DNA of 64,000 nucleotides, taken from IMG/VR virus record IMGVR_UViG_3300032360_000001, positions 25,346-89,345 of that record; one strand, given 5' to 3'. This DNA is from a virus. Below the pieces are notes generated by a model, which saw only the letters and a program-made list of their open reading frames with translations, was not told the DNA's origin and ran no database searches. Every line of letters begins with the position of its first letter. Within the stretch, counting starts at the first letter, position 1. This document shows positions 236-16,426 of the stretch, piece after piece. Made by a program: the position numbers and the translations under genes.

Positions 236-3200
236 TACAGCTGACGGGTGTACTCCCCACGCTGCAAAGTCTGGGGTTTCTTCTCTTTGGAAATATCTTC
301 CTCGATTCCTCATCGCGTTGCGATGCGCTGCTGTCGGCGGGCCTATTCTGGCTACTCCACCACGATCAATATTACCCCCCACTAGAGTGCTTGCTTCTGG
401 CCCCCGCGTATATCTATATCCACCGGGAGAAACGCCGTGTGCTCCACGTGTTGCTCTCACGCGTGGAGCAGCCATGTGGCCGTGAATTCCGGCGCGATAT
501 CTTTCCGTAGCTAACGCTAATCGATTGGGGCCGGCAGCAGTAGCATTGTAGGTGTCTCGCCAAAAGTCACGGAGTCTATTATTCCATGCTTGGTGTTTCG
601 GTAGCAATGTCTGGTTACGGCCAGTAGCAGGAATTTCAAGTGCTGATTGTCTTCTAAATTGATTCGGAACAGAGCCCCCACCTCTGGGATTCCAAACAAA
701 ACCGCCTGCGCCATATTCTACGGGCTGCATTGTGCCATATATAGTTGACATCTTATTAAACTGCTCCCACCACCCTTGCCTAAAGCCCGGGAACGGTTTC
801 CCATCAAGCATACCCGGTCTTTTGTCTGCTTCCGGATTGAACAAATGTTCCCCTCCCGGTATAAGAACAACGTCATTTGGCTTAAGGAATTTACTAATAT
901 CAGGTTTCCCCCCGGCTCTCGTCTTTAACGCTTTCATTAATTCCGGATTGGCCGCCGCCAGTGCCGCAGAAATAGTAACTCCATTTGCGCCCATGCTGAT
1001 TGCCTTGGCGGTAGTCATTTCTTCTCGGTATTGCTGACCTATAGAGGTAAGACCTTCTCCCACCTTTACCACGTGACCTAGTCCCTTTCCGGGAATTATT
1101 TCGTATCTTGACGGAAAACCTTCATTTTCGTCGAAAAATTTGTTTTTAGGATCCAATTCCCATTTAGCCTCTGGATCGAAGCCCCCTGTATGCGGCAAGC
1201 CAGTATATGGATGCACCTCCACTTCAGCGCGGTTCTTCGATTTAAAATGTTTTTTGGTCAAAAACCCGCTGGGTGCCCTACCTTTCCACCCGGCTTTGGA
1301 CATGCCAGAGTAGCCCACCACCATACCTAATGCCTCTCTAGTCTTCTTGTCGCCCTCGATTCTGCTTGGTACTGGAACTCTGTGTGGCCCTTTGGGCTTA
1401 GGATTTATTGGCGACCTCCGTGCTCGTTCTTCCGTCAGTGTTGATCGACGTGTCGGGGTCGGTATACCTTTTTTCTTTCGGAATAATGTTAATGCCTCAG
1501 TAGTAGCGGCTCCAGCGTAGCCGTCAATCTTGAGAGGCTTAATCTGACCGGCTTTAGGATTTGGCGACATGAGACCCATGCTGGTTAAATGTTTATTAAG
1601 AGCTCTTTGTTGATCTTTCCTTTCGCTCTCGCCGGTGAAGAACGCGTTAATGCCACCCCCTTGCTCACCAGCGGCCCCCGGAAAATTTGTCATATCCTGA
1701 CCCCATAATCCCGTATAGCCTCCGCTCTTTATGCTAAACCATTCGTTTAATACTCCAAAAGCTTCTGGTTCAATCCACCCGGCAGCCATCATGTCATTCG
1801 CTACGCCGGGTTGCATACCGTTTTCCCATTCCGAAAAACCGGCTGGGTGCATCAGCTGACTCATTCTTTTTCCCGGTTTTAATTTAATCTTTTCGGCGTG
1901 ACGAATCATCTTCATGTAAGCTGACTCAAATGTATCGTTCTTTGTAAACCCAAATCTTTCTATATTATTTGGATCTTTTATCCAATTTAATATGTGGGAG
2001 TTATTAGCCAACTTCTTTATATAATTCTTGTCTAATTTTGGTACTTTCGCCCTGAACGTGTCTCTAGCCGTTACTACGCCACCCGCACCGAATTGTGGTA
2101 CGTCCCGATCCGGTCCACGACGTAGGTTTTCTAATTCCTCCATCAGATCTAGATTTAGAGGAAGCGCATTACCCTTGTTCTTACGGGGGTCGGGCCCAAC
2201 CCCTGCCCCCCATCCGCGTTTATTGAGGGCCCAAGGTGCTGGGTGAACGCCTTCGGGCCATGGGTCACCACCCAACGGCATGCCAAATGGACCAAATCCC
2301 GCATCCCTCATCCCATCGATCTCGTTCTCACGATCAAGCATGGCCAGATGGTCAGCTAATTGTTGTTGGCGTACTGGATCATCTTTCCTTGCTCCCCCCC
2401 ACTCAGCAGCGGTTGGCCCAAAGGCGTTGTTACCTGAGGAGCCGCCTACACGGCTGAAGCCGCGACGACGCGGGTCCACGCGGTCCCAAAACGGCAGTTT
2501 ATCGTTGAATTTGCGCGCCGGTGAGTCGCTCCATGGATAAGCAGTACCAACGATACCACCATCTCCAAATCTTGGAACCCCCTCCCCAAGACCGGGCATC
2601 GTTGAATTCCGGTCCCTCAGGTCCGGCCTAGGAAGACCCGTGGCGGGATCAATCTCAAACGGCCATGGTATCTGTGGTGGCATTGGCGTGCTTGGGCCTT
2701 GTTGCCGGTTTCGGCGCGAAGGTATGCGATGCATACCCTTTGGGAGTGGCGCAAAGGGGTCATTCCACCATCTGCCCTGACCGGGATCAGGTTCCAAACC
2801 CATTGCACTTGTAGGTGAGTCGGGGCTTCCAACAGGCAGCGCATTTGGCGCTTGAATAAATTTATTGTACCACGCGTTTCCCTTCCCCTGCATAAGACGG
2901 TCCTTCAAAAGTCTTTTATGAAGAGCGTAGTTTTCACTCCATCTATGCTGCGATCCAATCCCTATTTTATCCAACTCCGAAATGGATGCCGAGATCTTTG
3001 GATCCATTAGCAATCCCGAAGTGCCCATTTCTGTAAATATTCTTTTGTTATAATCTCCTATATGGGGTATAAGTTCGGGCATGGATTCATCCAGTAACTC
3101 TTTCTCACTAAGAATATGGCGTGGGTTCTGCGTTTGCCTTTTCATGAGGAACTTGTATATTCTGCTTGCTTGCGAATTGCCCTGATGAAAAGCCCCCATG

Positions 3201-6200
3201 TTATCGGCCTGCTCAAACTCACCGATGAGGCCCTTCTCCTTCATAAACGAGTGGAACCACAATCTCTCGCTCATCATGCCGGGGGTGGCCCTATCTTTGG
3301 TCCTGTTCGAAGTCGAAGTGTGCCGAGTTTGAGTACCTATCCTCTGCCCAAACATAGTTCTAGGTATCTCCATACCCGGCGGCGCAAACATCGCAACCCC
3401 CCTGTTGCTAGAGGAGGCAGCGCTCCTCATTTTGTTTTCGGTCCGGAATTCCAGATTGATCCTAGCCATGCGTTTTTTCTCGGCTTCTAATTCGGCCCTC
3501 TTCGCCAGAGCCTCCTTAGACAAGTTATACCATTCGTCACCTCTGGGTATTTCAGTGGATAGATCACCCCTCCCAGACTTTATGAGCGCTTCTCTTAAAC
3601 CTTCTTCTGTCATGGGTCCCCGCTTGTGGAGGGGTTGACCAAAGAAACCCTTACTTGGAATTTGTCCCGTAATTTGAAGCATTTGTCTTTGCTGGATCTT
3701 CTTCTCCCAAGCATTTTGATATTGCGTAACGGGACCTCCGTCTTGATAAACCTGTGGGTTAGCCCATCCGGATTTATTTTTTCTCCACCACTGATTTAGA
3801 TGAGCAAAGGCTAAAGGGTTTCTCTCTTGAAAGATTTGTAGCTCTTCTCTGGCGGCTATCTCTCTCTCGTTAAGACGAGCCGGAAATCCCGCTATGGGCA
3901 AGCCGTTAACGCCAATTCGTTCCGCGAATGTCAACAATGTGTGCTCTTTCTCATGATCGTAACCGCCCTCGGCAATGTTTCGCCTCATATTGCGCATCTT
4001 TTGCGAGGCAAGGTCCTTGGGGGTACCCTTGTGACGAAATGGATTACCCGGAATTCCAATTTCCCGTCTGAATAATTCTTGCATCTCCATTTGGGATTGC
4101 ACCTCATGAAACGCTGGCGGAGCTTTGTCAAAAGCAAATTGTCCGTGCTCACCGCCGGGATTGCCCGGCGCACCGGGCAAAACTTTCACTCCCCTTAATG
4201 GGTTCCGGCCCAAGTTTAAATTGCCGCCAAGCTGCTGGCCGCCGCCCCACCCCGGCATAAGTGGTTGCTGCTGCGCCCAAGTATTTGGGTGCCGCCAAGG
4301 ATTTTGAGGCACCGGACCACCTTGTTGGAACATCCTTCCTTCATTTATCTCGCGTAAATGACCCAGCACTCCGGGCTTTCTGACTTCGCTTTTTCTGACT
4401 ATGAATTCTCCGCCCTCTGCTTCGAGCTTAATGCCTCCCCTCGAGTGAGAAGGACCATGAAGCTCTCCACCTGACTGTTGTTGCGGTAAGCTTGGCCTCC
4501 CATAGTTTCCAAAGCCACCGCTCATCAAGTTCCCCATAAATCTACCTATCGTAGCGTTATAGAACGCTTGGTTTATCATCTTTAAAAAACCTCGAGCCCA
4601 CGCTTTCGCCGTCTCGGTGGCGCTTTCGCCCTCTACTGCAAAAGCTGCCCAACCGTCTGCGAAAGACGAAATCATTCCTTCTCTTATCTCAATCATGTCG
4701 TCGAGGACCCTTTCCTTCCATCCTCTTGACATTGCCTCACCCTTCTCAAACGTGTCCGCTCCAAACGCTTCCCAGACACCTATTTTTCCCGTTCTTAGTT
4801 GCTGACGGGTTATATCCTGTTCTCTTTGGTATGTATCTGCAGGTGTTCCTATGCCCGCTGCTTCTTCTAGTCTGGCTTGTTTTGCTGCTAGCCTTAATTG
4901 AACCTCTGTCAGTTTTTTTGTTGAGTTTAATAATTCTTTGAATTTTTTGGGGTCATCCATTATGGACAAACTCATTGTTGTATTCGCTATCTGCGTGTCG
5001 AGTGCCTCCATCCTCTTCACGTGCTCTGCGGTTACAAATCTTTTTTGTATTTCTATAGCTGCCTGAGTTACCGATCCCCAGTTATCGATAATTACCTTTT
5101 GAGCATTCAGCGCATCTGTGTGTGATTGTTTTGCTTTTCTTAATTCATTTTCAGCATCTTTTCCTGCGTTTATAATGTTTATGTAGTCAGCGTATGTTGC
5201 GTTATGCGCGTCGAGTTGATTTGTTTCATTTTTTCTTGCTAACGCTGACGCTTCGGTTGCTGCCTCCAGATCATCGTTGACCTTCTTAAGCTCTTCTTTA
5301 GTATCGTCGCTCTGCTCCTTCCTTAGTATTACAGCTTTCTCGTTAAGCAACCTAACCACATTATCCTCCGCGGTCTTCTTCTCATTAGCCGTTACCCCCA
5401 ACGCCGCATCACTTTTCTCAAAATCTTTGAATTTCGCTGTCCGCATCATGTGGGCCTTTAAAACATTTGCTTCCGCCACCTTACTCTCTGCGAGAGCTTC
5501 TTTTCTTCCCCCCGCGGCTGCTTCTTTTTCAATGGTCAAAATTTTCTCCATCTCTCTCTTGAGGTTCCGCTGCTGGGTTTCCCCCACTCTTGATGGTGAA
5601 ATCGCGCTAAATGTCTGCGCGGCAAATGCGCCACCCGGCTGTGATGTCCTTGGGCTGCGCATCTGTTGCAATAGGTTTTCCCTCGGTAAGCCCTCTTGTC
5701 TTATAAGCTCCTGATCGAGCTCGAAAGGAGACATGTCTTGCAAATCTTTTGAGGAAATACCAATTGCTTTAGAGAACTTTTCAAGCGCGGCACTGGCTTC
5801 GAGCAAAGCGTCTCTTTCTGCTTGTAAAGAGTCAACAAGCCCCTTAGACTGCTCGTTTGCTGCCTGATTTAGAGCTATTTGGTCCGCGGCTGCCTTTGCT
5901 CTTGGGTCAGTAATCTCGCTGGGAAGTAGCGCCGCGCCACCACGCGCCTCTATGGTTTTTTGGAGCATGGCCGATTGGTCTGTTCTTTCTTTTATAGCCC
6001 TCTGTTCTAAAGCTGTTCTTAATACCACCGCATTATGCCGCGCTCTTATGTTTCTGTCCCCAATTTTCGACTCTGCCACTAGCAGCCGCTTTTGCACTTC
6101 GGTTAGCTTCGATTCAATCAGCGTTCTCTGAGCGTATAAAGCCTTTAATTTGTCTTGTGCTTTGCCAGCCTCAATCGTTCTGTTTTTTATTTTTTCTTCT

Positions 6201-9200
6201 ATTGCCGCAATCTCCTTAGCGTTGTCTGTTATTTTTTTCTGGGCTACATTCGCCTTGTGTATTTCGTTATGGTATGCTACGCCTTCTTTAAATTGTTTGT
6301 CGAGTTGTGCAGCAATTTTCTTTTGTTGATTGGCGGTGAGTTTCTGCCCCAGCGTGTGTTCAATACTATATTGGGCCGGGATATTCATTTTGTCCCCAGC
6401 ATTAATTCTATTAATGTTTGCAATTTGGGGATTTGCCCCTTTTAAATTGTCTAGAGAGACTCCGTAGGTTTGCGCAATTGCATTAGCTGTATCGCCACCC
6501 AGTATTGTGTGCTCCCGCGCTGCCGTAAATCCAAGTGCCGGTGGCCCCCCGACATTTCCGCCGGGTGCTGTTATCATCCGTTGATGAGCCTTGCCCTGAC
6601 TTAGATTAGTCAAAAATCTGTACGCCATGTCTCGCTTATCACCAAACGTGGCCGGGTCGTTTTGCATACCTGAGATTTTCCATATACTACCGGGGCCCAG
6701 CATTGAGTGTTCGTAGTCACGGGTGCGGTCCGGGGTGAACACCCCCCCTTCTTTTCTCACTGCTGCCCGTCGCCACAAGGCATCTTGGTTCAGTTTACCG
6801 CCAAACAAACCCCCTTCGAAAGTACCGGGTGACAAACCCTCGGGGCCCATGCCTGTGACCTTGCCAGCAATGTCCGGCATCGCGTCCTTTAGCTTATCCA
6901 TCCATTGCCCCCCAACTCTTTTTGCCACGTTGACCTGTTGAGGCCCCCTGAAGGCCGCAAGCAGATTCTGATTTATGAAAACGTTGGCCATCTCCATCGT
7001 GTGCCTACCTAGCGTTCTTGCCATAGCAGATGCTTTCTGCGTGGCGGCGGTTTGGACCCGTTTGACGGCGGACATATCTTTGTTCGCAGCTTCTAAACCT
7101 TTTTCTAATTCTTGGAAAGGCAGATCGCCCAAAAACGGTGCCAATTTATGAATTTCATCAATCATTTCCGCGTTGTCGCCCATTAACCGTTCCGCGGCTT
7201 GTCGCGCTATATCATGTATTTTATCCGAGCCAGTCTTCAGCTTAGTTAGGTATATAACGCTTGCCCTTCCGCCGGGGTCGCTTACCTCTGGAGACGCTTT
7301 CTCTACGTCCTTCATCATTTTATCTATCTCGCTAGGATCAGGAATATTCTTAAACGCTTTATCCGGGTCGATACCTAAAAGTTCCTTTACGCTTGGTAAT
7401 CCGCTTCTCGGCCCCTGATAGCCTTTATTTCCTCTTAAGAATGATCTTCCGTATTTACCAAATGTTTGTCTAGCCATTGTGGTAAGTGGCTGAGTAGTTT
7501 GTTCTGTTCCTCTTCGTACTTGACCAGCAAGCATACTACCCGGAATAAGAGGTGGGGGTATTGGTGCTGATGTAGTTTGTTTCCTGAGGTCAAAAAGTTT
7601 GTCTCTTAGTAGTCTTGAGCTAGACCTTCCCTCTATTTCATCCATTGCCCTTTTGTATTGCTCCGGCAACAGATGGAGTGCGTTTTTTATTTCTTCTCGT
7701 TGACTTTTTGAAACAGTTTCGTCGGATAGTATAGCTTCAAGTATGTTAGTGAGAACATTTATAACTATATCTTCTTTATTATTAAGAGCATTTTTTGTGT
7801 CTTCGTTTTCGCTTGAATTAAGTTTACTCAAGGCGTCTATCGATTGCTGTATAGCTAATAAAGGAGTTTCAAGCGGGTCTGCCGATATCGCTAATTCGGT
7901 ATCTGCAAGCTCGTCAATGGTAGCATTAAGAATTTCCATGCCGTTTGAGAAATTATCTGCATAGTCTGCAAAACTGTTCAAGGCATCGCTGATATTATTC
8001 CCAACATCCATGGTGTTGACTGAAAAAATCCATTCCTTCATGGTATTTTCAGCCGCCTTGGAAAACGAATTTGTCCATTCTTTCACTGCATCCACAGTGC
8101 CGCCACCTTTAGGCCTGTCCGGAACACCCCCTCCAAGATCTATCGTTGATGACCTGAATGGTTTAAGCTCCTTTATCTGCTTGCTCAAAAGAGCCGCTAT
8201 CTGTTCTGCTAATTTTTTATCTACTACAATCCCTTTGTTTGGATCAATAATTGCCTTAAGACTGGCTTGAAACGCATCTGTTATTGTGTCGAATTGTTCT
8301 AAGAGCGGTTTAATATCCCCCTCCCTCTCAAAGAAGCCCTCCTCGTCACCGGTTCTTAAAGCCACGCCTTCTAAGACCTTTCTGATCCGAGCCTCTTGAC
8401 CTTCGAACTTGTCTAGAGCAGCCTTAATCAACTTAGCCTCTGAGACGTCTACTGTCCTCCCCTCCTTAAAGGTCTTTTGAAAATTAGTAAATAGCAGCTT
8501 CCCTGCGGAGCGGTAATCCTCCATCATGTCGCTGACCCCGACCATCATGCCCTCATATTCGCCTTGCTCCAGCGGCTGTTGTACCCTAATGAGTGGTATT
8601 TCATTATAATAAGACGCATCGGTTCGCCCACCACGCTGCTGCGTCTGATCCCATGTTTCACCGCCACCAATGCCGGGTGAGAGTACTTGTCGCGTTCCTC
8701 TGGTATATATCTGACCCGGTTGACTCGGGTGAACTCCGATCACGGCTGTTTGTATAGCCAATAATGCTGTAAGAAGTTTCTTCGGGTCGCTCTGCAATTC
8801 ATACGCTTCGAATCCCTTTTTGCCCGGAAGTAGAGCTACGACATCTGTCAACTTGGATAGTGCAGATATCATGTTCGGCTGCCAATTTCCGGAGTCTCCC
8901 TCGAAAACCATATCCTTTAAATCTTTTGTTAATATCTTTATCGCCTCAGAAGGGCTGGCGGAGGTTCCCATCCATGTCTGGGTTTTTTCCCAGTCATTTA
9001 AGTCCAATGGCAGAGTACCGCGCACCCTAGTCTCACCCGTGGGCAACTCCGTTCTTTCAATTAGTCCCTGCTCCTCTGTTACTTCACTTATTCTAGCGAA
9101 GGACCTCAGCAAGGCTTCCTGTGCTCTTACGAGGGATATCTTCATCTGACTGTCCTGCGGGACATTTGCATCAGTTAAAGTGGATTTATACGCCTCAAAG

Positions 9201-12200
9201 GCGACTGTCATTTTGCCTACGTCCTCAGCATTTCCGCCAGTTCGGACCCTCTCCATGAATTTTGCCATATTTATGTCAAAACTACTATCCTTCACTTCCT
9301 GTTTCGACACAGCCCAAACGTCCATCTTCTCCGTAATGTTTTCCCACGTCATAGACTCTCCCGGCAAAAGGCTCCCAGCCGCCGCGTCAATGTGCTTTAC
9401 AAGCCAAGTATTTGCCTTGTGCAAACTCCATAGAATTCCACCTTTATCAAAGATTTCCTCATGTTGTGGAGGGACCATCGAGAATTTAGTGCCCTTGCTC
9501 AAGTTGGCCATCATATCCTCGGCACCGGCTGTTTTACCCTCTAAAGAGGCGAAGGCCTTTTCTTGGTTTATTCTAGTATGCTGCAGGCTTTGTTCTCCCC
9601 TAAATACCTCTACCGCCTGCATGAACCCTGTGTTCGCCTTGGACATGATTTCGCCCATTTTTGACACGGCCCCAGTCATCGCAGTGTCTATCGCGGCTTT
9701 ATAAACTTGATCATTAGTTCTTCGCTGGTTTGCCCCGAATTCCTCTGCTGCCATTGCCGCGCTGCCAAGTTTTTCATTTGAAACTATAAGATCGTAATTA
9801 CTGCCAATAAGTAAAGCCGTTACGTCAACATTTGCACCCAGACTCTCCACCAACATGTTTCTGTTTTTGAACTCGGCCTCTAGAAGTTTAGCTTTATATG
9901 CTCGTTCTTCTGACGCAATTTTTGACAAATTAGCTGAGTCCATAACCTCCGCCATCATTCCGCCTTGAGCAGAATTCATGCTTTCTATTATACTTTTCCC
10001 TATGTCTGGATTAAAGTTGCTATTAATGACTCTACTTACGTTTTCCGGGCTCATTCCAAGGGCCTCTAAAGCGTCGGGGGCTTCTGCCCTAAAGGTTCTT
10101 TCCAGAAGGCTCTCTTTCATGGCCTTACCTATGCCATTTGCGAAATCAAATCCCATTTTTTCCAGATCTCTTAGCCCCTGCATCTGCATCATTGCCGCTT
10201 TTGACCTCTCGCCCCTAGTTGGAAGCCCCGCCACAGTCGTTAACTTCTTCAAGGCGTCAATAATGCCTCCTCCGCCAAAACCTCCCCCCGCTGTCATGGA
10301 TTCCTGCAGGGTTCTTCTTCTTTGAAACGCCCTGTTCGATTCTGCAATTTGATTTTGAATTATCAGAAGCCTATTTGATTGGGCAAGATTTAAATTGTTT
10401 TCTTTTATTTCGTATTCTGCTTTGGAAAGTGCATCTTCTAGTTTTCTACCCTGCTCTCTTCCGACCCCCCCTTCCTTGTCATTGATTATTCCTCTGTATA
10501 TATCCGCGGCAAGATCAGCTGGGCCGACTATCATTTGCCGCGCCAAGACTTGAAGTTGCTGCAATCCGCCGGGCAAGCTTCCCCCTGCGCTGCTTTTTTC
10601 CATGGTCATCTTAAGGATTGCGTCGTGAAATCTTTTTTGCAACAGGGTATTTTTTAAGGTGTTAGTTTCTATATTCTTGAGTATATTGCCGGCAACTCCA
10701 AATCTTTCCCTGCGTTCCCTACCAATCGTTTCGTCCCCCGTTACGGCACTTGATAATTCCTTGCTCACTTTCTGACTGTGGTCAAAGAGAGATTTTGATA
10801 CATTCATTAAATGTTCAAATGAATTTGATATTTGTGATAACCTATAGTTTAGATCAGCCGTAGCTAGTGCCATTCTTTCTATCGATTCTACAGATTTTGA
10901 AGTTTCTGCTTCGAGCTCTTCATACCCTCGGGCTTGAGCCATTATCTGCGGTATAAGACCTTGATTTTCTTCTCCAAGCGCTTCTATCATGTCTGCGGCT
11001 TCTTTAGCTCCAACGCCCATTTCTTCAAGCTTAGCCGTTAGATCAGCGCCGGATTTACCCATGAGTTCCCAACTCTTAATTCCTTTTAATTCGAATGCAG
11101 AAGATAAGGTTTTCGCCAAGTCCTTCATTACTCCTCTTTGCGCTGCGCCGCCTTCCCCCGCTTTCGCCGCTAATACGCCCATCGAACCTTTCTTTTCCTG
11201 CATGGAAATAGTTTCCTGCACTTTAGCCATGGCTTCTCGCATTTTGCTTTCATCACCAGCAGCACCAATTAGCTCTCTCCTTAGTCCCGCATCCTCGATT
11301 TGCATGAGTTGTTCTCTCATTTGTCTGCGCATCATCCCCGTTTCGGCAGGACCAGCGCCCCTATTAAACATGCCGGTTAATCTCCCCTGCAGTTTAATAT
11401 ATGCCTCCGCGCCGAGTAAGGCTTTCTTTCTCGCCTCCGTCTCTTTTTGAATAGCTTTCGCGTAGTCTTCCGCTGTTTTCTTGCTGGCTTTTTGATGGTC
11501 CATGAACGCCAGCCCGGCACCAATAGCTAAGCCCGCTGCCGCGCCCCAAGGACCGCCAATCATTGCGCCAGTTCCGGCCATCCCTGCCGCGGTGCCAACT
11601 CCTCTAACTTTTGCTTTCTCTGCTCTTTCTTCTGGGGTTTCGCCTTTGCCTCCAACAAATTGTTCGGCCACTCCAGCCATCATTTGAATACCTATTCCCA
11701 GCCCAAAGCCTTTTTGTTTGATCCACTTACTCGCGGCACCTTTCGTGTCCGGTTTTAGTGCTGCGGCCTTTTCTGCCGCTTTTGCTTCTGCGTGTTTTGC
11801 GGCGGCTACTTTCCTTGAGGTCGTTGCCATTTTCTTGTCCATCGCCCAAATTTTTGCTTGAGCGGCGGCCTTTTTTTCGTTTGCTGCGTTTGCTCGATCA
11901 GCAGCGCGGGCTTCAGCCTCTCTCGCCTTTTGAAGAAGTAAGGTTTTTTTGGTTAGGTCCTTGGCTGCTTTATCGCCGGAATGTTCGCCGACGGATCCCC
12001 TTGGGGTTCTTCCTGAAGTATCTACGGATTGTGAAATTATTTTACCAGCTTGGGCGTGGCCTTGTTGTCTTAGCTTTTCGATTTTTGCATTGTATGCTGG
12101 GGTGTGTGGAAGACCAGTAGAAGGATTTATTCCGGGAACGCCACCAACGGTGCCTCGCTCTGCGCGTAACCCAGTCATTCCTAGTCCCGCTGGTCCGGAA

Positions 12201-15200
12201 TGCGCCATTCCAGCGCCTCGCGGCCCCGGGGTACCGTGCATTATTGCCCTGTTCACTTCTCTTCGAACTATTCTATCTGCTGCTTTTTGCTGCGCCGCTT
12301 CAGCTTGCTTTACGCCTCCCGTTCTCTCCCCCCCCGGAGTGGTTCTCGTTCCGAATTTGGCCTCCATTCGGCTCTTGGTCGCCTTCTGAGCGTCGCGCCC
12401 ATGCTCCTTGACCTCCGTTTGTAATCTAGTTTTTTCTTTTTGTTGGGCTTTTCGTGCTCTTTCTTGTTTTTTAGCGGCTGCTTTCGCTTTTTTCTTTATA
12501 TCTTTTTGTTTTTCGTGATCCGCCTTTTGATCGGCCAGCATTTTTGTTTCTTGAGCGCTGTCTCCGCCCATTTGCATCATCATTCCTGCCATCATCATTC
12601 CTGATGTCATGGCCATGTAATCAACGCTATCTGCAGCATAGTTGGGTATGTAACCCCCACTTGCCCTCGAGCCCGCTTTAGCTGGGTCTGGGTGAGATCT
12701 AACAGCTTTAATTAGATCCGCCTTTGTCCGTTCATCTCTCTTATTTCCTACCGCCAAACCTTTGTATTCTGGAGTATCTATGGAAGCTGCATAAAGTTGA
12801 TTTTCGGGTAACCCGGTGGCTTTCTTTTCCCTTCTAAACGCATCCGCTAGTGCATCGCCTTTGCTGAAACTAGGAATGAGCCCTTGGCCAGCTGGATTAA
12901 CCTGCCCCCAATTACTGCCATAATTTACTATTCGGGGCCGTATATTCATATCTTTGCTTGCACCTCTTAGTGCCGCGTAATATGCGTTTGCCCGTGAGTC
13001 TTCATAGAACTTTGCGTTTTGTAAATGTGGGCGTTCAAAAATTTCATAGGCCTTCTTCTGGTGAGTTTTCTCTATCCCTTTGGGGTATTTTCTGCTTCCA
13101 GTAGCTATTACTTCCCTGTATGGAATTTTTTGGGCTTTTAACCAAGTCTGAATATATGGAATTGAATCTTCCCCTCTTGCGGTTAAAACCGTCATTGGCT
13201 CTTTATTTTTTGAGGCTGCCTTCGCTAATTTAGTTGGTACCATATGACCGACAGACCAACCATGCCACGTATCCCCTTCTCGCATTTTTCTCATACCTGT
13301 TGGGGTGGTAACCATCCCTTTTGGAGGTACTCCCAACGTCCCATCAAAATCAAAAATGTTTCCCTTTCCGCGTCCACGGGCTGCGGCTGCCATCGATCCT
13401 CCCCGCATTAAATTAGGAATGAAACCTTGGGCCGCACCAAAATGCGTCATTAGTTTATCATAATTCGATGCCGATGGACTCCCTTGAAGGATCTTCATTA
13501 TATCCTTACCAAAAATATCTTTTATTTGTGTAGCGCCTTTGGCCCCCTCAAGCGTAACTTCACTTTGGGAAACTCTTTGCATTCTTTGGAAGTCTGCCGT
13601 TTTTGCGGTATCTATATAGTTATCTAATTTTGTTAGATCGCCCTGCAACTTCTGCGGACTGTGGAATGTGCCGGCTTTATCTTTGTAGCCGCCGCGGGCA
13701 ATATTCTTTTCTATTCCTGTCCGTAAAAAATGCAATAGTCCGCCCTCTTTACCCGAGTCAGAAGAGAATAACGATTTGTACGACAGGCTTCCTCTGGCGT
13801 CTCTGCCGGACATCCCCGCATGAAAACTTGGTTTGAATTCAGCAGGTCCAATTATTTTCCCCCCTTTTATAGCTATTGCATCTAGAATTGTTTCTCCTTG
13901 CCCCCCCTTTACATTGCTAAACGGCAGAAGTTGATGGCCGCTACCACGACCAACAAGGGCTTTTTCTATTAAACTAGAATGAGTTAATTCCGCTTTTGCA
14001 AAAAATGAGCCTTTAGCAGCGGGGTTGTTACCTAGCACCTCCATTGCCCTTTCTCTTGCCCCCAAGAATGACCGTGCTGTCCCGCTTGGGTGGTATACTA
14101 TATCTTGTGCTATACGCGACGCGTTACCCGCACCCCCAACTGAATCGACGAAGCCCTTGTACGCCGTCTTACCAACCGCCGGAGATAATAGATCATTGTA
14201 AAATCGTTTTGCAACATCGCTTGGCATTGTAGCTCTCGCAACTGCTACTTCTCCTATTTCTCCTAACGCTATTTTTCCCTTTGCGGCTGACACACCATGA
14301 CCCGATATTGCATGATCATAAGCGGTCCTTAATACGTTTTTTTGCCCCTTAGGAACCTTGGGTCCGGATTTATGGAATCTCCCTATTCCGAAACTTTCTA
14401 AAGAAGCGGCTGCTCCTTTTCCGGGCATGGCTACTGTACCCAACCCCAGTTTGCCTCGACCAAATAAAGAAAGCATCGCTGGGTTGGCGAAATTTGGAAC
14501 TGAATAAGGATCGACACCAGTTTTGGCCATTGATTTTTCTCTATGTTGCCTACCGGCCTTCGAGTGCTGTGGTGGATTAATGAATGGCTGAGCAAAGCCG
14601 GGTACATGTTTAACCTGTTCTTTTGAGTTGTAGGTCATTGTTCCAAGCCCGGGCATTTTCATTTGTTTTATGGCTCCTGCTTTGTACCCGCCTTCTGCTG
14701 CGCTTATTATTTCACTTACAGCGCTTTCTCTCTTGTTAAAATTCGGTATGTGTCCCCGCGCCGAGTGTTTGGGCGGTCTACCCCTCATATACGCCGGTGC
14801 CTGTACTTGTCCTGCACCACTTACGGTTACCCCGCCCTTTACCATCATGCCAGCCATTCTTGCGGCAACCTTCTCCATGTTCTGCATCACAAGGGTCTCT
14901 TGCTCGAGCATAGCGATTATTTCTCTTTCTACCTGCACTCTTGCTTGCGATGACTGCGCTGCTCTTGCTATAAGTTGTGGCTGAGCTTCCAATATTTTGG
15001 CTATTCCTTCTTGCAAGCTTTTTTGTTGTACAGCAGCGGTGTTCAAACCCATGAATTGGGCTCCTGATTCCTTGACGAATTTTGCTAAATTCATTCCAAG
15101 TTTTCCAAGGAATCCAGTTAATAAAAGAAGTCCCGGGCCTTGCAAGAAATTTCCAATTCCGGACAACATTCCTTGCGCAATTTTTCCCCCCACATCTTTC

Positions 15201-16426
15201 GTGTCCTTTTCGTTTATGTCGCCTAAAACTTTTTGCATAACTCCAACCACCCTCTCTGTGACTGGTCTTAACGTTAGGTCTCCTACTTTCTTTGCTGCCT
15301 GCGTGGCTAGAGCCATCGTCTTTTTTACTTGAGCGTCGAGAGTTTTGTTGAGCAGTTCATTTCTTAATATCGCTTCGTTTGTCGATCCCGTCGATACCTT
15401 AACGGCTTTATCGTAAATCGAATATTCTTGTCCAAGGTCAGAGAGTATCGCTCTTAAGTTATTCATTTGGAATACGCCAGCAGTAACCTCAGCAGTATGA
15501 GCTTGTTGAGCCTTAGATAGCGTAGGAAACTTTTTGGCCAAATTGCCAAGAACATTCATTGCGGGCATCATTTGCCCCTCCAAGTCTCTCACCTTCACCC
15601 CTAATTCTTCCAAGAGATTAAGAGTGTCTTTTCTTTGGATTCTTGTAAATATACTTTTTAACGCGTTACCAATAACGGGACCACCACGGGCCGTTGTTTG
15701 CTGAACGGAAGCTGTGATTGCAAGAAGTTGATCAAAGGATACGCCAACGTCCTGAGCGGTACTTCCCACACGCCTCATGGATTGAGCTAAATCATCTGTG
15801 CTTACGGCAAATGCCGCATCCACATTGGCAAGCTTATTAATTACCTGAGTAGAACTTAATGCCTCCCTATTGAACGTATTTAATGCTGCCGTTAAGGAAG
15901 AAACTGATGCCGCCGCATCCATACCGGAAAGTCTCGTAAGAATGAGGGCGTCGCTTGTTCTCTGAAGCGTCTCTTCGGTTGACAAACCTTGCCTAGCTAA
16001 TTCTGTCGCTGCTTCAGCTACAGTATCGAAACTTTGTGCCGTTTTTTGCGCTATTGTGAAAAGGCTGTTTCCGAACTTTGCGAGGCCTCGATCTGTTTGT
16101 CCTAAAATTACATTGACATCCTGAAGTCTTTTCTCGACCTCAATAGTACTTTTAAGTAAAAATTCAAATGCCCTTTGGACTTGAAAAATCGCCCCAGCAG
16201 AAGCTCCAAACGCTAAAACACGCGCATTTGATGCTTCGAGTGATCTTGTGAATTCATTTGTGGCACCAGTGATTTTCCCAAGGGGCCTAGTAAATTTCCC
16301 AGAGTCAACGCTAACGTTAACCCCTCGCCTTTCTACTTGGGTAATAGCGCTGTTTATTTGCCTTAAAGTGGCTTGTAGTGACGCGCTATCTAACCTTGTT
16401 CCTAGTGTGATAAAACTATCCGCCAT
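1..16426 (-). CDS. Giant tape measure protein, at least 5475 aa, 3' end outside the window
   Basis: ATG at 16426 (MADSFITLGTRLD...). N-terminal TP901-type core (AEAATELARQGLS...LANVDAAFAVS...TARGGPVIGNALKSIFTRI). Gly/Ala-rich hydrophobic segment near 11500-11720. The segments I translated by hand have no stop, and its absence from the ORF track fits a frame open to the window edge. Lies downstream of the tail tube and chaperone genes. Confidence 0.93.
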   Translation of the reverse strand, partial: MADSFITLGTRLDSASLQATLRQINSAITQVERRGVNVSVDSGKFTRPLGKITGATNEFTRSLEASNARVLAFGASAGAIFQVQRAFEFLLKSTIEVEKRLQDVNVILGQTDRGLAKFGNSLFTIAQKTAQSFDTVAEAATELARQGLSTEETLQRTSDALILTRLSGMDAAASVSSLTAALNTFNREALSSTQVINKLANVDAAFAVSTDDLAQSMRRVGSTAQDVGVSFDQLLAITASVQQTTARGGPVIGNALKSIFTRIQRKDTLNLLEELGVKVRDLEGQMMPAMNVLGNLAKKFPTLSKAQQAHTAEVTAGVFQMNNLRAILSDLGQEYSIYDKAVKVSTGSTNEAILRNELLNKTLDAQVKKTMALATQAAKKVGDLTLRPVTERVVGVMQKVLGDINEKDTKDVGGKIAQGMLSGIGNFLQGPGLLLLTGFLGKLGMNLAKFVKESGAQFMGLNTAAVQQKSLQEGIAKILEAQPQLIARAAQSSQARVQVEREIIAMLEQETLVMQNMEKVAARMAGMMVKGGVTVSGAGQVQAPAYMRGRPPKHSARGHIPNFNKRESAVSEIISAAEGGYKAGAIKQMKMPGLGTMTYNSKEQVKHVPGFAQPFINPPQHSKAGRQHREKSMAKTGVDPYSVPNFANPAMLSLFGRGKLGLGTVAMPGKGAAASLESFGIGRFHKSGPKVPKGQKNVLRTAYDHAISGHGVSAAKGKIALGEIGEVAVARATMPSDVAKRFYNDLLSPAVGKTAYKGFVDSVGGAGNASRIAQDIVYHPSGTARSFLGARERAMEVLGNNPAAKGSFFAKAELTHSSLIEKALVGRGSGHQLLPFSNVKGGQGETILDAIAIKGGKIIGPAEFKPSFHAGMSGRDARGSLSYKSLFSSDSGKEGGLLHFLRTGIEKNIARGGYKDKAGTFHSPQKLQGDLTKLDNYIDTAKTADFQRMQRVSQSEVTLEGAKGATQIKDIFGKDIMKILQGSPSASNYDKLMTHFGAAQGFIPNLMRGGSMAAAARGRGKGNIFDFDGTLGVPPKGMVTTPTGMRKMREGDTWHGWSVGHMVPTKLAKAASKNKEPMTVLTARGEDSIPYIQTWLKAQKIPYREVIATGSRKYPKGIEKTHQKKAYEIFERPHLQNAKFYEDSRANAYYAALRGASKDMNIRPRIVNYGSNWGQVNPAGQGLIPSFSKGDALADAFRREKKATGLPENQLYAASIDTPEYKGLAVGNKRDERTKADLIKAVRSHPDPAKAGSRASGGYIPNYAADSVDYMAMTSGMMMAGMMMQMGGDSAQETKMLADQKADHEKQKDIKKKAKAAAKKQERARKAQQKEKTRLQTEVKEHGRDAQKATKSRMEAKFGTRTTPGGERTGGVKQAEAAQQKAADRIVRREVNRAIMHGTPGPRGAGMAHSGPAGLGMTGLRAERGTVGGVPGINPSTGLPHTPAYNAKIEKLRQQGHAQAGKIISQSVDTSGRTPRGSVGEHSGDKAAKDLTKKTLLLQKAREAEARAADRANAANEKKAAAQAKIWAMDKKMATTSRKVAAAKHAEAKAAEKAAALKPDTKGAASKWIKQKGFGLGIGIQMMAGVAEQFVGGKGETPEERAEKAKVRGVGTAAGMAGTGAMIGGPWGAAAGLAIGAGLAFMDHQKASKKTAEDYAKAIQKETEARKKALLGAEAYIKLQGRLTGMFNRGAGPAETGMMRRQMREQLMQIEDAGLRRELIGAAGDESKMREAMAKVQETISMQEKKGSMGVLAAKAGEGGAAQRGVMKDLAKTLSSAFELKGIKSWELMGKSGADLTAKLEEMGVGAKEAADMIEALGEENQGLIPQIMAQARGYEELEAETSKSVESIERMALATADLNYRLSQISNSFEHLMNVSKSLFDHSQKVSKELSSAVTGDETIGRERRERFGVAGNILKNIETNTLKNTLLQKRFHDAILKMTMEKSSAGGSLPGGLQQLQVLARQMIVGPADLAADIYRGIINDKEGGVGREQGRKLEDALSKAEYEIKENNLNLAQSNRLLIIQNQIAESNRAFQRRRTLQESMTAGGGFGGGGIIDALKKLTTVAGLPTRGERSKAAMMQMQGLRDLEKMGFDFANGIGKAMKESLLERTFRAEAPDALEALGMSPENVSRVINSNFNPDIGKSIIESMNSAQGGMMAEVMDSANLSKIASEERAYKAKLLEAEFKNRNMLVESLGANVDVTALLIGSNYDLIVSNEKLGSAAMAAEEFGANQRRTNDQVYKAAIDTAMTGAVSKMGEIMSKANTGFMQAVEVFRGEQSLQHTRINQEKAFASLEGKTAGAEDMMANLSKGTKFSMVPPQHEEIFDKGGILWSLHKANTWLVKHIDAAAGSLLPGESMTWENITEKMDVWAVSKQEVKDSSFDINMAKFMERVRTGGNAEDVGKMTVAFEAYKSTLTDANVPQDSQMKISLVRAQEALLRSFARISEVTEEQGLIERTELPTGETRVRGTLPLDLNDWEKTQTWMGTSASPSEAIKILTKDLKDMVFEGDSGNWQPNMISALSKLTDVVALLPGKKGFEAYELQSDPKKLLTALLAIQTAVIGVHPSQPGQIYTRGTRQVLSPGIGGGETWDQTQQRGGRTDASYYNEIPLIRVQQPLEQGEYEGMMVGVSDMMEDYRSAGKLLFTNFQKTFKEGRTVDVSEAKLIKAALDKFEGQEARIRKVLEGVALRTGDEEGFFEREGDIKPLLEQFDTITDAFQASLKAIIDPNKGIVVDKKLAEQIAALLSKQIKELKPFRSSTIDLGGGVPDRPKGGGTVDAVKEWTNSFSKAAENTMKEWIFSVNTMDVGNNISDALNSFADYADNFSNGMEILNATIDELADTELAISADPLETPLLAIQQSIDALSKLNSSENEDTKNALNNKEDIVINVLTNILEAILSDETVSKSQREEIKNALHLLPEQYKRAMDEIEGRSSSRLLRDKLFDLRKQTTSAPIPPPLIPGSMLAGQVRRGTEQTTQPLTTMARQTFGKYGRSFLRGNKGYQGPRSGLPSVKELLGIDPDKAFKNIPDPSEIDKMMKDVEKASPEVSDPGGRASVIYLTKLKTGSDKIHDIARQAAERLMGDNAEMIDEIHKLAPFLGDLPFQELEKGLEAANKDMSAVKRVQTAATQKASAMARTLGRHTMEMANVFINQNLLAAFRGPQQVNVAKRVGGQWMDKLKDAMPDIAGKVTGMGPEGLSPGTFEGGLFGGKLNQDALWRRAAVRKEGGVFTPDRTRDYEHSMLGPGSIWKISGMQNDPATFGDKRDMAYRFLTNLSQGKAHQRMITAPGGNVGGPPALGFTAAREHTILGGDTANAIAQTYGVSLDNLKGANPQIANINRINAGDKMNIPAQYSIEHTLGQKLTANQQKKIAAQLDKQFKEGVAYHNEIHKANVAQKKITDNAKEIAAIEEKIKNRTIEAGKAQDKLKALYAQRTLIESKLTEVQKRLLVAESKIGDRNIRARHNAVVLRTALEQRAIKERTDQSAMLQKTIEARGGAALLPSEITDPRAKAAADQIALNQAANEQSKGLVDSLQAERDALLEASAALEKFSKAIGISSKDLQDMSPFELDQELIRQEGLPRENLLQQMRSPRTSQPGGAFAAQTFSAISPSRVGETQQRNLKREMEKILTIEKEAAAGGRKEALAESKVAEANVLKAHMMRTAKFKDFEKSDAALGVTANEKKTAEDNVVRLLNEKAVILRKEQSDDTKEELKKVNDDLEAATEASALARKNETNQLDAHNATYADYINIINAGKDAENELRKAKQSHTDALNAQKVIIDNWGSVTQAAIEIQKRFVTAEHVKRMEALDTQIANTTMSLSIMDDPKKFKELLNSTKKLTEVQLRLAAKQARLEEAAGIGTPADTYQREQDITRQQLRTGKIGVWEAFGADTFEKGEAMSRGWKERVLDDMIEIREGMISSFADGWAAFAVEGESATETAKAWARGFLKMINQAFYNATIGRFMGNLMSGGFGNYGRPSLPQQQSGGELHGPSHSRGGIKLEAEGGEFIVRKSEVRKPGVLGHLREINEGRMFQQGGPVPQNPWRHPNTWAQQQPLMPGWGGGQQLGGNLNLGRNPLRGVKVLPGAPGNPGGEHGQFAFDKAPPAFHEVQSQMEMQELFRREIGIPGNPFRHKGTPKDLASQKMRNMRRNIAEGGYDHEKEHTLLTFAERIGVNGLPIAGFPARLNEREIAAREELQIFQERNPLAFAHLNQWWRKNKSGWANPQVYQDGGPVTQYQNAWEKKIQQRQMLQITGQIPSKGFFGQPLHKRGPMTEEGLREALIKSGRGDLSTEIPRGDEWYNLSKEALAKRAELEAEKKRMARINLEFRTENKMRSAASSSNRGVAMFAPPGMEIPRTMFGQRIGTQTRHTSTSNRTKDRATPGMMSERLWFHSFMKEKGLIGEFEQADNMGAFHQGNSQASRIYKFLMKRQTQNPRHILSEKELLDESMPELIPHIGDYNKRIFTEMGTSGLLMDPKISASISELDKIGIGSQHRWSENYALHKRLLKDRLMQGKGNAWYNKFIQAPNALPVGSPDSPTSAMGLEPDPGQGRWWNDPFAPLPKGMHRIPSRRNRQQGPSTPMPPQIPWPFEIDPATGLPRPDLRDRNSTMPGLGEGVPRFGDGGIVGTAYPWSDSPARKFNDKLPFWDRVDPRRRGFSRVGGSSGNNAFGPTAAEWGGARKDDPVRQQQLADHLAMLDRENEIDGMRDAGFGPFGMPLGGDPWPEGVHPAPWALNKRGWGAGVGPDPRKNKGNALPLNLDLMEELENLRRGPDRDVPQFGAGGVVTARDTFRAKVPKLDKNYIKKLANNSHILNWIKDPNNIERFGFTKNDTFESAYMKMIRHAEKIKLKPGKRMSQLMHPAGFSEWENGMQPGVANDMMAAGWIEPEAFGVLNEWFSIKSGGYTGLWGQDMTNFPGAAGEQGGGINAFFTGESERKDQQRALNKHLTSMGLMSPNPKAGQIKPLKIDGYAGAATTEALTLFRKKKGIPTPTRRSTLTEERARRSPINPKPKGPHRVPVPSRIEGDKKTREALGMVVGYSGMSKAGWKGRAPSGFLTKKHFKSKNRAEVEVHPYTGLPHTGGFDPEAKWELDPKNKFFDENEGFPSRYEIIPGKGLGHVVKVGEGLTSIGQQYREEMTTAKAISMGANGVTISAALAAANPELMKALKTRAGGKPDISKFLKPNDVVLIPGGEHLFNPEADKRPGMLDGKPFPGFRQGWWEQFNKMSTIYGTMQPVEYGAGGFVWNPRGGGSVPNQFRRQSALEIPATGRNQTLLPKHQAWNNRLRDFWRDTYNATAAGPNRLALATERYRAGIHGHMAAPRVRATRGAHGVSPGGYRYTRGPEASTLVGGNIDRGGVARIGPPTAAHRNAMRNRGRYFQREETPDFAAWGVHPSAVDKDVARVIFSEVGPQHPDLVFAVGDAMRNRYNNQASRTRHGISTGYGISVGGSRYPAEVRNGAWWVQAPTRRGFSWRA
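855..1078 (-). other. Second, interrupted LysM-like domain inside the tape measure ORF
   Basis: HVVKVGEGLTSIGQQY...LAAANPEL...LKPNDVVLIP: both LysM ends are present, with insertions between them. Confidence 0.55.
1460..1620 (-). other. Peptidoglycan-binding (PG_binding_1-like) domain inside the tape measure ORF
   Basis: QQRALNKHL...LKIDGYAGAATTEALTLFRKKKGIP resembles the DGxFGxxTxxAxxxFQxxxGL motif. Confidence 0.7.
6377..6514 (-). other. LysM domain inside the tape measure ORF
   Basis: EHTILGGDTANAIAQTYGVSLDNLKGANPQIANINRINAGDKMNIP matches the LysM pattern. Confidence 0.88.
12950..13365 (-). other. HAD-superfamily phosphatase-like domain inside the tape measure ORF
   Basis: In-frame translation gives IFDFDGTL (motif I), VLTARG (motif II), HQKK (motif III) and FYED (motif IV) in the correct order. 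Confidence 0.8.

Follow-up and report, generated by a model that had tools for sequence, protein, structure and literature searches.

What is an apparent phosphatase doing inside a phage tape measure protein (TMP)? The question is raised by the 64,000-nucleotide stretch of viral DNA analysed here, hereafter the window (positions 25,346 to 89,345 of IMG/VR record IMGVR_UViG_3300032360_000001), which comes from an uncultured marine phage. An earlier, sequence-only reading had singled out an intact-looking HAD phosphatase domain within the TMP and suggested that it is delivered by the virion. Our main reading, which we hold with moderate confidence, is that this segment is a selected, HAD/Pnkp-related optional cassette that would act as an Mg2+-dependent phosphomonoesterase, built into the tail and expelled into the host.

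The identity of the surrounding 6,429-aa protein as a TMP is well supported by its sequence. A single frame on the minus strand opens in the window and runs past its beginning, with 5,475 residues inside the window and the end of the full protein at G000:C1:22482 in the genome (Table 1). Its N-terminal core matches TIGR01760 (E 2.9e-36, 125.2 bits against a cut-off of 28.8), PF10145 over residues 126-312 (E 5.9e-33, 114.9 bits against 33.2) and phrog_4211 (E 1.4e-51). The phosphatase-like segment lies in the same open frame as this core, as the sequence-only reading had claimed, and on the plus strand no ORF of at least 60 aa overlies 12950-13365, the closest being 12200-12424 and 13603-13836. 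Several modules share this one polypeptide, including a LysM domain at residues 3307-3350 (PF01476, E 1.1e-6). A nuclease identity for the module immediately upstream of the HAD segment (residues 648-1000) was considered and rejected, given an ESM score of just 0.76 and no profile match. The order of the co-oriented genes around the TMP is consistent with a tail module, none of them carrying a tail-gene name; in a PHROG scan of the ten ORFs upstream of the TMP, nine had no match and the remaining one was a sulfotransferase.

Table 1. Features of the TMP gene and its predicted phosphatase module (window positions; TMP residue numbers).
Feature	TMP residues	Window position	Strand	Basis or remark
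TMP gene		2..16426	-	start 16426, continues off window start
TP901-type TMP core	90-406	15209..16159	-	TIGR01760, PF10145, phrog_4211
Upstream linker GFIPNL	1001-1006 (IPNL from 1003, 13409-13420)	13409..13426	-	motif search
HAD-type phosphatase module (predicted)	about 1018-1168	12923..13375	-	span aligned to Pnkp phosphatase domains
Motif I DFDGT	1026-1030	13337..13351	-	invariant in 6/6 members; aligned to T4 D165/D167
Motif II LTAR	1081-1084	13175..13186	-	Thr1082 with T4 Ser211, Arg1084 with T4 Arg213; invariant in 6/6
Motif III candidate Lys1124-Lys1125	1124-1125	13052..13057	-	invariant in 6/6; assignment inferred
Motif IV FYED	1140-1143	12998..13009	-	Glu1142 and Asp1143 predicted Mg2+ ligands; invariant in 6/6
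Downstream linker GLIPSF	1182-1187 (IPSF from 1184, 12866-12877)	12866..12883	-	motif search

The segment that had drawn attention, window positions 12950-13365, corresponds to TMP residues 1021-1159 and contains the four signatures previously described, DFDGT, LTAR, KK and FYED, in sequential order; all are invariant in an alignment (A2) of the six family members, the window copy included. The two IPNF-like flanks noted in the same reading are also present, as GFIPNL and GLIPSF, and relatives have GFIPNF, GFLPNF or GFVPNF at the upstream position. The strict motif G-x-[IVLF]-P-[NS]-[FYL] occurs four times in the TMP, against a mean of 0.08 and a maximum of 2 in 2,000 shuffles; a looser version occurs five times against a shuffle mean of 0.72, a count of five being reached by 0.1% of shuffles.

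The contiguity of this arrangement was assessed in metagenomes, where uncovered parts of contig mappings and RNA runs holding a small share of the stretch were given no weight. In an independent marine run (X3), one 1,172-base contig matches 12533-13704 with 0 differences; because it crosses both linkers, the arrangement is not an assembly chimera. Contigs from two further runs (X4 and X8) each span single module junctions, no joint that skips the HAD module was seen among four metagenome runs, and more than half of the sampled words of the stretch are present in nine further runs, not counting the two samples that may be its source. A chance pattern of motifs or an assembly artefact thus has a negligible probability in our view: the absence of Pfam matches is the one observation in its favour, and it is countered by these identical junctions and recurring words, and by the profile, fold and conservation evidence set out below, including shuffle controls.

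Profile comparisons link the segment to phage polynucleotide end-processing enzymes. The model phrog_415, which scores T4 pseT at 8.6e-26, matches all six members (best E 5.1e-6, window copy 1.5e-4), and the TMP is its single match in this genome. When A2 was aligned by hhalign to a profile of 12 phage Pnkp phosphatase domains (A3), a probability of 96.1% was obtained (E 3.1e-9, 125 columns); 60 column shuffles gave at most 4.5% (score 21.8 versus 58.9), and a reversed alignment 0.1%. The 12-sequence profile was used in place of the single T4 sequence, with which motif I alone aligned, at 40%. Also matched by all six members is phrog_1238, and ESM features of the module score 0.93 to viral HAD clusters. 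Curated models behaved differently: neither Pfam nor NCBIfam yielded a HAD family for the window copy, in scans of the domain or of the whole TMP, so that the profile check proposed by the sequence-only reading is positive with phrog_415 and hhalign and not with the curated families. PF12710 (HAD) matches two of the six members, at a best E of 0.0073, whereas PF25109 (HAD_PNKP) finds nothing in G000 or G001 up to an E of 10 and scores the T4 Pnkp control at 201.3 bits; PF08645 and PF10307 do not match the TMP. Searches of PDB sequences with phmmer and hmmsearch gave nothing significant, the best being 1xpj_A at E 0.69.

A predicted structure leads to the same relatives. The AF2 model built from the six sequences has a pTM of 0.62 and the expected order of strands and helices, with block mean pLDDT values of 57-91 over model residues 15-110; its C-terminal third, which holds motifs III and IV, falls below 50, and the active-site geometry there is unreliable (a single-sequence model reached a pLDDT of 33). 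DFDGT follows a strand at 17-19, and strand 1 is succeeded by a hairpin at 31-40; Thr1082, within VLTAR, lies at the end of the strand at 71-75, and the lysine pair at the start of the helix at 116-124. In a VIA search of 48,161 chains the first rank went to 5uj0_B (rmsd 3.1, 113 residues aligned) at Z 8.5, which barely exceeds the 7-8 that the tool gives as typical of unmatched models. Ranks 2 and 3 were 1ltq_A and 4xrp_A (both Z 8.4), so that the top three comprise T4 Pnkp twice and Pnkp1, and among the best 50 matches at least 34 are HAD-type enzymes, as judged by title. Next after Pnkp came acid phosphatases of classes B and C, which are periplasmic or outer-membrane enzymes (Z 5.6-6.8, rmsd 4-5 Å, 8-12% identity), and GmhB. 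Foldseek ranked 4xru_A and 5uj0_A highest in the PDB, with no match at E <= 0.001; in BFVD two matches reached E <= 0.001, and 12 of the best 50 rows bear the name Pnk or Pnkp. Because phrog_415, hhalign, the structural matches of the AF2 model, BFVD and ESM concur, we conclude that residues of about 1018-1168 are a predicted compact HAD-superfamily (DxDxT) phosphatase module, distantly related to the T4 Pnkp 3'-phosphatase domain. The HAD assignment of the sequence-only reading, for which it had proposed fold prediction as a check, is therefore upheld by the Rossmannoid part of the model and its three Pnkp-type matches, and its link to phage RNA-repair 3'-phosphatases holds in that Pnkp-type enzymes are the nearest characterised relatives.

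The kinship is nevertheless remote. T4 Pnkp (PseT; 5uj0, 1ltq, 2ia5; phrog_415; PF25109) is the best match by both structure and profile, and shares the DxDxT acylphosphatase fold and a small cap, but identity is about 17% and the module fails the PF25109 model. The roles of T4 residues used to assign motif I were taken from the relevant part of PMC3592404. D1026, D1028, T1082, R1084 and W1095 align with T4 D165, D167, S211, R213 and W231. In each of two MAFFT alignments T4 Lys258 comes one column after Lys1124-Lys1125, and hhalign has a gap opposite the pair; since the pair is one column off, its assignment to motif III is inferred. Motif IV is ambiguous between two registers, one pairing its Glu and Asp with T4 D277/D278 and the other pairing D1143 with D277. 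Of the 19 Pnkp positions compared, all six modules retain 8 (165, 167, 168, 169, 211 as Thr, 213, 231 and 277). Lost Pnkp-family invariants include G212, replaced by Ala, and T228, replaced by Ile; no residue stands opposite R246, and conservation is also lost at D254.

The context differs as well. T4 Pnkp is a soluble early enzyme with a fused 5'-kinase, whereas the module has no kinase and belongs to a virion protein with a structural role. A similar HAD phosphatase domain (Z 8.4, 117 aligned) is found in Pnkp1 (4xrp, 4xru), but this protein is part of a bacterial kinase-ligase-methyltransferase assembly for RNA repair, Pnkp1/Rnl/Hen1, and such partners were not found here. The partial genomes G000, G001 and G002 (57, 71 and 32% complete) gave no hit for an AAA_33 kinase, Rnl2 or RtcB; the Rnl1 search, which matched no control genome either, was uninformative. 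Given the failure of the HAD_PNKP model, the lost invariants and the absence of kinase, Rnl2 and RtcB from those genomes, RNA repair is one possible role among several. Stand-alone phage HADs from Webervirus, Kagunavirus and Xanthomonas phages (L020-L022), annotated 'polynucleotide kinase' or 'acid phosphatase', and the viral HAD_SAK_1 and T5 dNMPase clusters resemble the module in size (about 150-160 aa), in being phage-borne and in sharing (S/T)GR and DD; they are separate genes, whereas the module is part of a virion protein. Such small HADs were rejected as nearer kin than the bifunctional Pnkp, since L020-L022 alone aligned with A2 at 87% over only 32 columns, while the bifunctional enzymes reached 95.2% over 125.

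The known family is small, at six sequences. Searching 1.84 billion representatives with phmmer returned three matches, of which P0002 and P0003 are both TMPs and P0004, a low-complexity repeat protein, was dropped as spurious. A motif in P0002 and P0003 suggested a module of GNAT-like type, but Pfam gave nothing and this reading was not adopted. The domain had no match when searched by tblastn in 50,697 phage records, and no copy was found by scanning the contigs of prokaryotic genomes. Word-index searches revealed no stand-alone (96-308 aa) or fused (309-2,000 aa) form, and among proteins of 1,368-4,356 aa P0002 and P0003 alone appeared. That this is not a usual tape measure domain, as the sequence-only reading put it, is supported by 81 related TMPs, in which HAD-like cassettes of any kind occur six times, in three sequence types that each adjoin the linker motif, and the window type twice. 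The two other types, L093 and YDWDGT, are much more divergent lineages that repeat the same motif set; the hhalign score of the YDWDGT cassettes against A2 was inflated by the flanking linker motifs taken into the alignment. One complete 1,776-aa TMP (L026) has no HAD module, and TMPs of this family accept many unrelated modules at the same site. Judged by these comparisons, the HAD module is an optional in-frame cassette in the TMP variable region, placed between two copies of G-x-I-P-N-F.

Such permissiveness could be taken to mean that the module is no injected enzyme but a structural spacer or plug, a pseudo-enzyme, or a protein whose work is confined to the assembly of virions in the cell that produces them. 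This explanation would also accommodate the failure of curated HAD models and the low model confidence at motifs III and IV, and it gains from the fact that activity and delivery are deduced from HAD chemistry and TMP analogy. We find it very improbable, since the nucleophile, the acid/base Asp, the Thr, the Arg, the Lys-Lys and the Glu-Asp are invariant in all six members at about 50% identity, and the motif set recurs in the two divergent cassette types. Moreover, the module has a dN/dS of 0.23-0.25 and is better conserved between clades than the TMP core (51-53% versus 38-42% identity). It is also the only cargo module common to the compared clades. The catalytic residues, unchanged among these relatives, are by sequence comparison under purifying selection.

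The HAD domain is apparently active as a phosphatase, and HAD chemistry predicts that it hydrolyses phosphomonoesters with the aid of Mg2+. In this scheme Asp1026 would serve as the nucleophile that attacks the phosphate, giving an aspartyl-phosphate intermediate, and Asp1028 as the general acid/base that protonates the leaving group and then activates water. Stabilisation of the transition state would fall to Thr1082 and Lys1124/1125, and the holding of Mg2+ to Glu1142/Asp1143. As part of the TMP, the module should be present in the tail at few copies per virion and, if TMP biology and the precedent of phage P23-45 discussed below are a guide, would be expelled to the host envelope and cytoplasm just before the DNA. 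It could therefore work ahead of any phage gene expression.

Enzymatic domains inside TMPs are not without parallel. The TMPs of mycobacteriophage TM4 and of T5 (pb2) reportedly carry muralytic motifs; these too are enzymatic domains within a TMP that are used in infection, but they cleave peptidoglycan and none is known to be a phosphatase. To our knowledge, all non-RNAP enzymatic TMP domains known before act on the cell wall. This pattern speaks for an alternative that we consider unlikely, in which the module would act outside the cytoplasm and take phosphomonoesters off the envelope polymers or lipids that the tail meets on its way; these might be the phosphates of LPS core or lipid A, the ends of teichoic acids, or carrier lipids. 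The LysM domain of the same TMP, the rank of class B/C acid phosphatases and GmhB directly after Pnkp, the phrog_1238 matches and an ESM-matched cluster that carries Acid_phosphat_B all agree with an envelope role. Against it, nucleic-acid end phosphatases are nearest by both profile and fold, and the class B/C matches are of the low identity and high rmsd given above. The cassette also lies in the N-terminal sixth of the TMP, far from LysM, and the N-terminal end of a TMP would be the last to exit the tail.

For the preferred reading, in which the module reaches the cytoplasm, the closest parallel is gp96 of the Thermus phage P23-45, a TMP of 5,002 aa with a virion RNA polymerase as its N-terminal portion, an enzyme that the authors propose to work at the pore while DNA enters (PMC10770324). 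As described there, gp96 resembles the present TMP in being giant and in bearing its enzyme, one that acts in the cytoplasm, in its N-terminal part; it differs in that the enzyme is an RNA polymerase, in having no G-x-I-P-N-F-fenced cassettes, and in its host and phage lineage. In the literature we met with no precedent other than gp96 for a TMP enzyme that is not muralytic. We found no printed report of a HAD or phosphatase domain within a TMP, the nearest papers on the subject (PMC3706429 and PMC8306868) dealing with separate genes. Polyvalent proteins of phages and conjugative elements combine many effector domains, frequently alongside processing peptidases, in one polypeptide that is delivered with DNA (Iyer et al. 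2017, PMC5512222). The main text of that study contains neither 'tape measure' nor 'phosphatase', and its supplementary architectures could hold such a fusion; in the present TMP, Pfam, NCBIfam and PHROG scans detected no peptidase domain. With this cassette in its TMP, the phage would probably bring a finished phosphatase along into the host cell.

As to the substrate, our tentative guess is a polymer phosphomonoester, foremost the 3'-phosphate or 2',3'-cyclic-phosphate ends of nucleic acids, because the cap is small, few enzyme copies would enter per infection and Pnkp is the nearest relative. A small-molecule nucleotidase would act instead on free dNMPs, as does the pre-early 5'-deoxynucleotidase of phage T5, or on a phosphorylated defence or alarm nucleotide. 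The clusters matched by ESM at 0.93 include one named for the T5 enzyme, with PF26880 on 89% of its members, dNMPases and one nucleotidase stand among the BFVD rows, and phrog_8630 ('nucleotidase') matches four of the six members, at an E of only 0.17. Nonetheless, few copies per infection would be ill-suited to bulk metabolite turnover, and the model has only a small cap, whereas capped HADs are the usual small-molecule enzymes; we regard this role as quite improbable.

A broader proposal, which we offer as speculation and think rather unlikely to hold in full, is that the G-x-I-P-N-F-fenced TMP region is an exchangeable platform for genome-coinjected proteins, with the HAD cassette as a counter-defence or genome-protecting enzyme of the first seconds of infection. 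On such a platform the cassette might rid the incoming DNA, or cleaved RNA of host or phage, of 3'-phosphate or 2',3'-cyclic-phosphate ends, or it might destroy a phosphorylated defence signal before phage genes are expressed.

The usual picture of a TMP is that of a ruler that also forms a channel, and most enzymes known from fusions with TMPs degrade the cell wall; the virion RNA polymerase of P23-45 showed that a TMP is able to bear a cytoplasm-acting enzyme too. An apparently active cassette of Pnkp lineage that is selected and recurs in several sequence lineages within one TMP family suggests that long-tailed phages also import ready-made enzymes by way of the TMP, and candidate roles for a TMP-borne phosphatase include end healing, counter-defence and envelope remodelling. 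At about 150 aa the module is small and easily expressed, which makes it convenient for testing the idea of TMP-borne enzymes. If true, this reading would add a new class of pre-expression functions to siphophage-type virions.

The phosphatase-like module of the HAD class that the sequence-only reading placed inside a tape measure protein (TMP) does lie in one: the N-terminus of the encoding frame matches TIGR01760, PF10145 (114.9 bits) and numerous PHROGs annotated 'tail length tape measure'. The frame comprises 5,475 codons within the window and is stop-free for 6,429 codons in the full source record, an 89,345-base IMG/VR virus with an estimated completeness of 57%, of which the window forms positions 25346-89345 (G000:C1). 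At 6,429 aa the protein exceeds P23-45 gp96 (5,002 aa), which the excerpted text of PMC10770324 already terms giant. Its Gly/Ala-rich segment is a candidate membrane-inserting part, and short motifs of another family, the 'GG-x-V' kind (e.g. VPRFGDGGIV, VPQFGAGGVV), are repeated in the C-terminal part. Among ten ORFs tested in the co-oriented genes upstream, one matched a galactose-3-O-sulfotransferase PHROG (phrog_3347, E 7.3e-21) and the other nine had no PHROG match.

Features of the window, and HAD-like cassettes in related TMPs (residues numbered in each protein's own frame)
Feature	Window positions	TMP residues	Strand	Remarks
TMP frame	2-16426, from 16426 to beyond window start		-	single very long ORF; G000:C1:22482-41771
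Tape measure core		90-406	-	TIGR01760, 125.2 bits
353-aa module	13424-14482	648-1000		directly before HAD module
HAD stretch	12950-13365	1021-1159	-
DFDGT		from 1026	-	HAD module
LTAR		from 1081	-	HAD module
KK		1124-1125	-	HAD module
FYED		from 1140	-	HAD module
Gly/Ala-rich hydrophobic segment	11504-11566	1621-1641	-	C-terminal to cassette region
LysM peptidoglycan-binding domain	6377-6508	3307-3350	-	PF01476, E 1.1e-6
Upstream ORF	22962-23711			sulfotransferase PHROG
L093 cassette		632-823		DFDET, VLTAR, KK, TDD; fenced by G-x-I-P-N-F
L082 cassette		~1577-1716		YDWDGT, ILT[AS]R, KPKDK, [IV][IV]DD; G-x-I-P-N-F-fenced
L087 cassette		1927-2058		as L082
L095 cassette		1752-1883		as L082

As had been read from the sequence, DFDGT, LTAR, KK and FYED occur in that order between two IPNF-like linkers. 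IPNL precedes by 20 residues and IPSF follows by 25; no plus-strand ORF of at least 60 aa overlapping the stretch was found. The stretch was detected in many marine metagenomes, and a single 1,172-base contig from an independent run reproduces 12533-13704 with 0 differences. Since this contig bridges both linkers, the HAD-TMP fusion is not an assembly artefact.

The module belongs to a tiny family. A phmmer search of 1.84 billion representatives returned only two real relatives, both TMPs (2,489 and 2,408 aa), and contig scans contributed three more, two of them close (92% and 87% identity) and the third a distant fragment. No stand-alone form was found in 50,697 phage records by tblastn or in word-index searches of proteins of 96–308 aa, nor any copy in a scan of prokaryotic genome contigs. 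The window copy matched zero Pfam or NCBIfam families and had no significant match in PDB sequence searches. Profile and fold tests based on an alignment of all six family members gave a consistent picture. Each member matched phrog_415 (best E 5.1e-6) and phrog_1238 (best E 1.8e-5). The former covers the phosphatase domain of T4 polynucleotide kinase-phosphatase (Pnkp; T4 pseT E 8.6e-26), and in the window's genome the TMP is its sole match. Against 12 phage Pnkp phosphatase domains, sampled at even steps from 2,571 records ranked by tblastn, hhalign aligned the family over 125 columns, the whole domain, with 96.1% probability (E 3.1e-9, score 58.9), whereas 60 column shuffles reached at most 4.5% (score 21.8) and the reversed alignment 0.1%. 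ESM features lay at 0.93 to viral HAD clusters (HAD_SAK_1, T5 dNMPase, Acid_phosphat_B).

The predicted catalytic residues are conserved within the family. In T4 Pnkp, the excerpted text of PMC3592404 describes Asp165 as the phospho-acceptor, Asp167 as the general acid/base, Ser211 and Lys258 as phosphate contacts, and Asp278 among the named Mg2+ ligands. In two MAFFT alignments and hhalign, TMP Asp1026, Asp1028, Thr1082, Arg1084 and Trp1095 correspond to D165, D167, S211, R213 and W231; Lys1124-Lys1125 fall one column ahead of K258, and of the two registers obtained for Glu1142-Asp1143, one pairs them with D277/D278. Each of these residues is invariant in six of six members, and the module has a dN/dS of 0.23–0.25 among three close relatives. 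The motif set had been taken to mark HAD hydrolases, among them nucleotidases and RNA-repair 3'-phosphatases; kinship to the latter stands as regards nearest relatives but not family membership: the Pnkp-family invariants G212, T228, R246 and D254 are not retained, and PF25109 (HAD_PNKP) is silent on the module while scoring 201 bits on the T4 control. We thus file the module in the HAD superfamily, nearest to Pnkp-type phosphatases but outside the Pnkp family.

Structure prediction agrees with this assignment. An AlphaFold2 model from the six sequences (pTM 0.62, mean pLDDT 61) has block means of 57–91 over residues 15–110 and lies below 50 in the last third. Its elements run strand, hairpin, short helices, strand, helix, strand, helix, as in a HAD core. 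In an exhaustive comparison with 48,161 chains, T4 Pnkp phosphatase 5uj0_B ranked first (Z 8.5, rmsd 3.1, 113 residues), followed by 1ltq_A and Pnkp1 4xrp_A (both Z 8.4); as unmatched models commonly reach Z 7–8, this ranking is supportive only jointly with the other lines. Below the Pnkp entries ranked class B/C acid phosphatases, together with a phage sugar-bisphosphate phosphatase and further HADs. Foldseek against the PDB gave the same leading entries with weak E values (0.015–0.15), and BFVD gave two matches at E ≤ 0.001, with 12 of the 50 listed rows named Pnk or Pnkp.

The module behaves as a cassette. A comparison of the pieces obtained by cutting TMPs at the linker motif showed only the TMP core (38–42% identity) and the HAD module (51–53%) to be common to the window clade and that of two related TMPs, P0002 and P0003. 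A further module, 68% identical between P0002 and P0003, precedes HAD in the former (residues ~935–1073) and follows it in the latter (~1093–1232), a position swap that is direct evidence of reordering at the linker motif; it had no Pfam match, and its 'RGKGFAK' stretch is faintly suggestive of acetyltransferases. Across 81 related TMPs (80 loci from an IMG/VR profile scan plus L026; L024–L104), the strict motif G-x-[IVLF]-P-[NS]-[FYL] occurs in exactly four copies in 57, and in up to ten in TMPs above 2,700 aa. It is native to the whole family, with hinge, docking site or cleavage site as candidate roles. The HAD domain had been called unusual for a TMP, and HAD-like cassettes do occur in only 6 of the 81: two are of the window type, one is divergent and the remaining three belong to a 'YDWDGT' type. 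Each of them adjoins linker motifs, and the catalytic motif set persists in lineages that otherwise have little common sequence. L026, a complete 1,776-aa TMP without HAD, is matched by window TMP residues 553–652 and 1177–1264, flanking a variable region. The phosphatase module is therefore a recurrent cargo that members of this TMP family may carry or lack.

The 353-aa module had zero profile matches. Its nearest ESM clusters are CDI-toxin EC869-like restriction-endonuclease-fold domains (0.76, where the tool trusts at least 0.9), and a D...E-x-K pattern is visible by eye; a nuclease neighbour of HAD is a weak lead.

HAD phosphatases and enzyme-carrying TMPs are each already a known kind, and a HAD module within a TMP is real and moderately surprising. 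We found no report of a TMP-embedded HAD domain or phosphatase in the literature, and the main text of a polyvalent-protein survey names neither tape measures nor phosphatases (PMC5512222). For TMP enzymes that are not muralytic we found a single published precedent, P23-45 gp96, whose N-terminal part is, in the excerpted text, a virion RNA polymerase proposed to act at the TMP pore while the DNA enters (PMC10770324). Like that enzyme, the HAD cassette is N-terminal, in the first sixth of the window TMP and ahead of the hydrophobic segment.

The analysis shows the fold class, intact motifs, selection, where the cassette sits and its TMP context; the substrate is a guess. A small cap and few copies per virion favour polymer-borne phosphate, and Pnkp kinship favours nucleic-acid 3' ends; the substrate may also lie in the envelope, or may be free nucleotides. 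Counting against nucleic-acid ends, searches of three partial genomes, the window's own (G000) and two relatives (G001, G002), turned up neither a kinase nor Rnl2 or RtcB; an Rnl1 search was uninformative, as control genomes gave no match either. An ATP-dependent DNA ligase was found in only one relative, of 116 kb (L105, G001:C1:2464-3129; PF01068, 51.4 bits), and none in the window's own 57%-complete record. Polymer-borne phosphate at nucleic-acid 3' ends is still our guess. From TMP biology, the module would be built into the virion and expelled at infection, and from HAD chemistry it would act as a Mg2+-dependent phosphomonoesterase through an Asp1026-phosphate intermediate.
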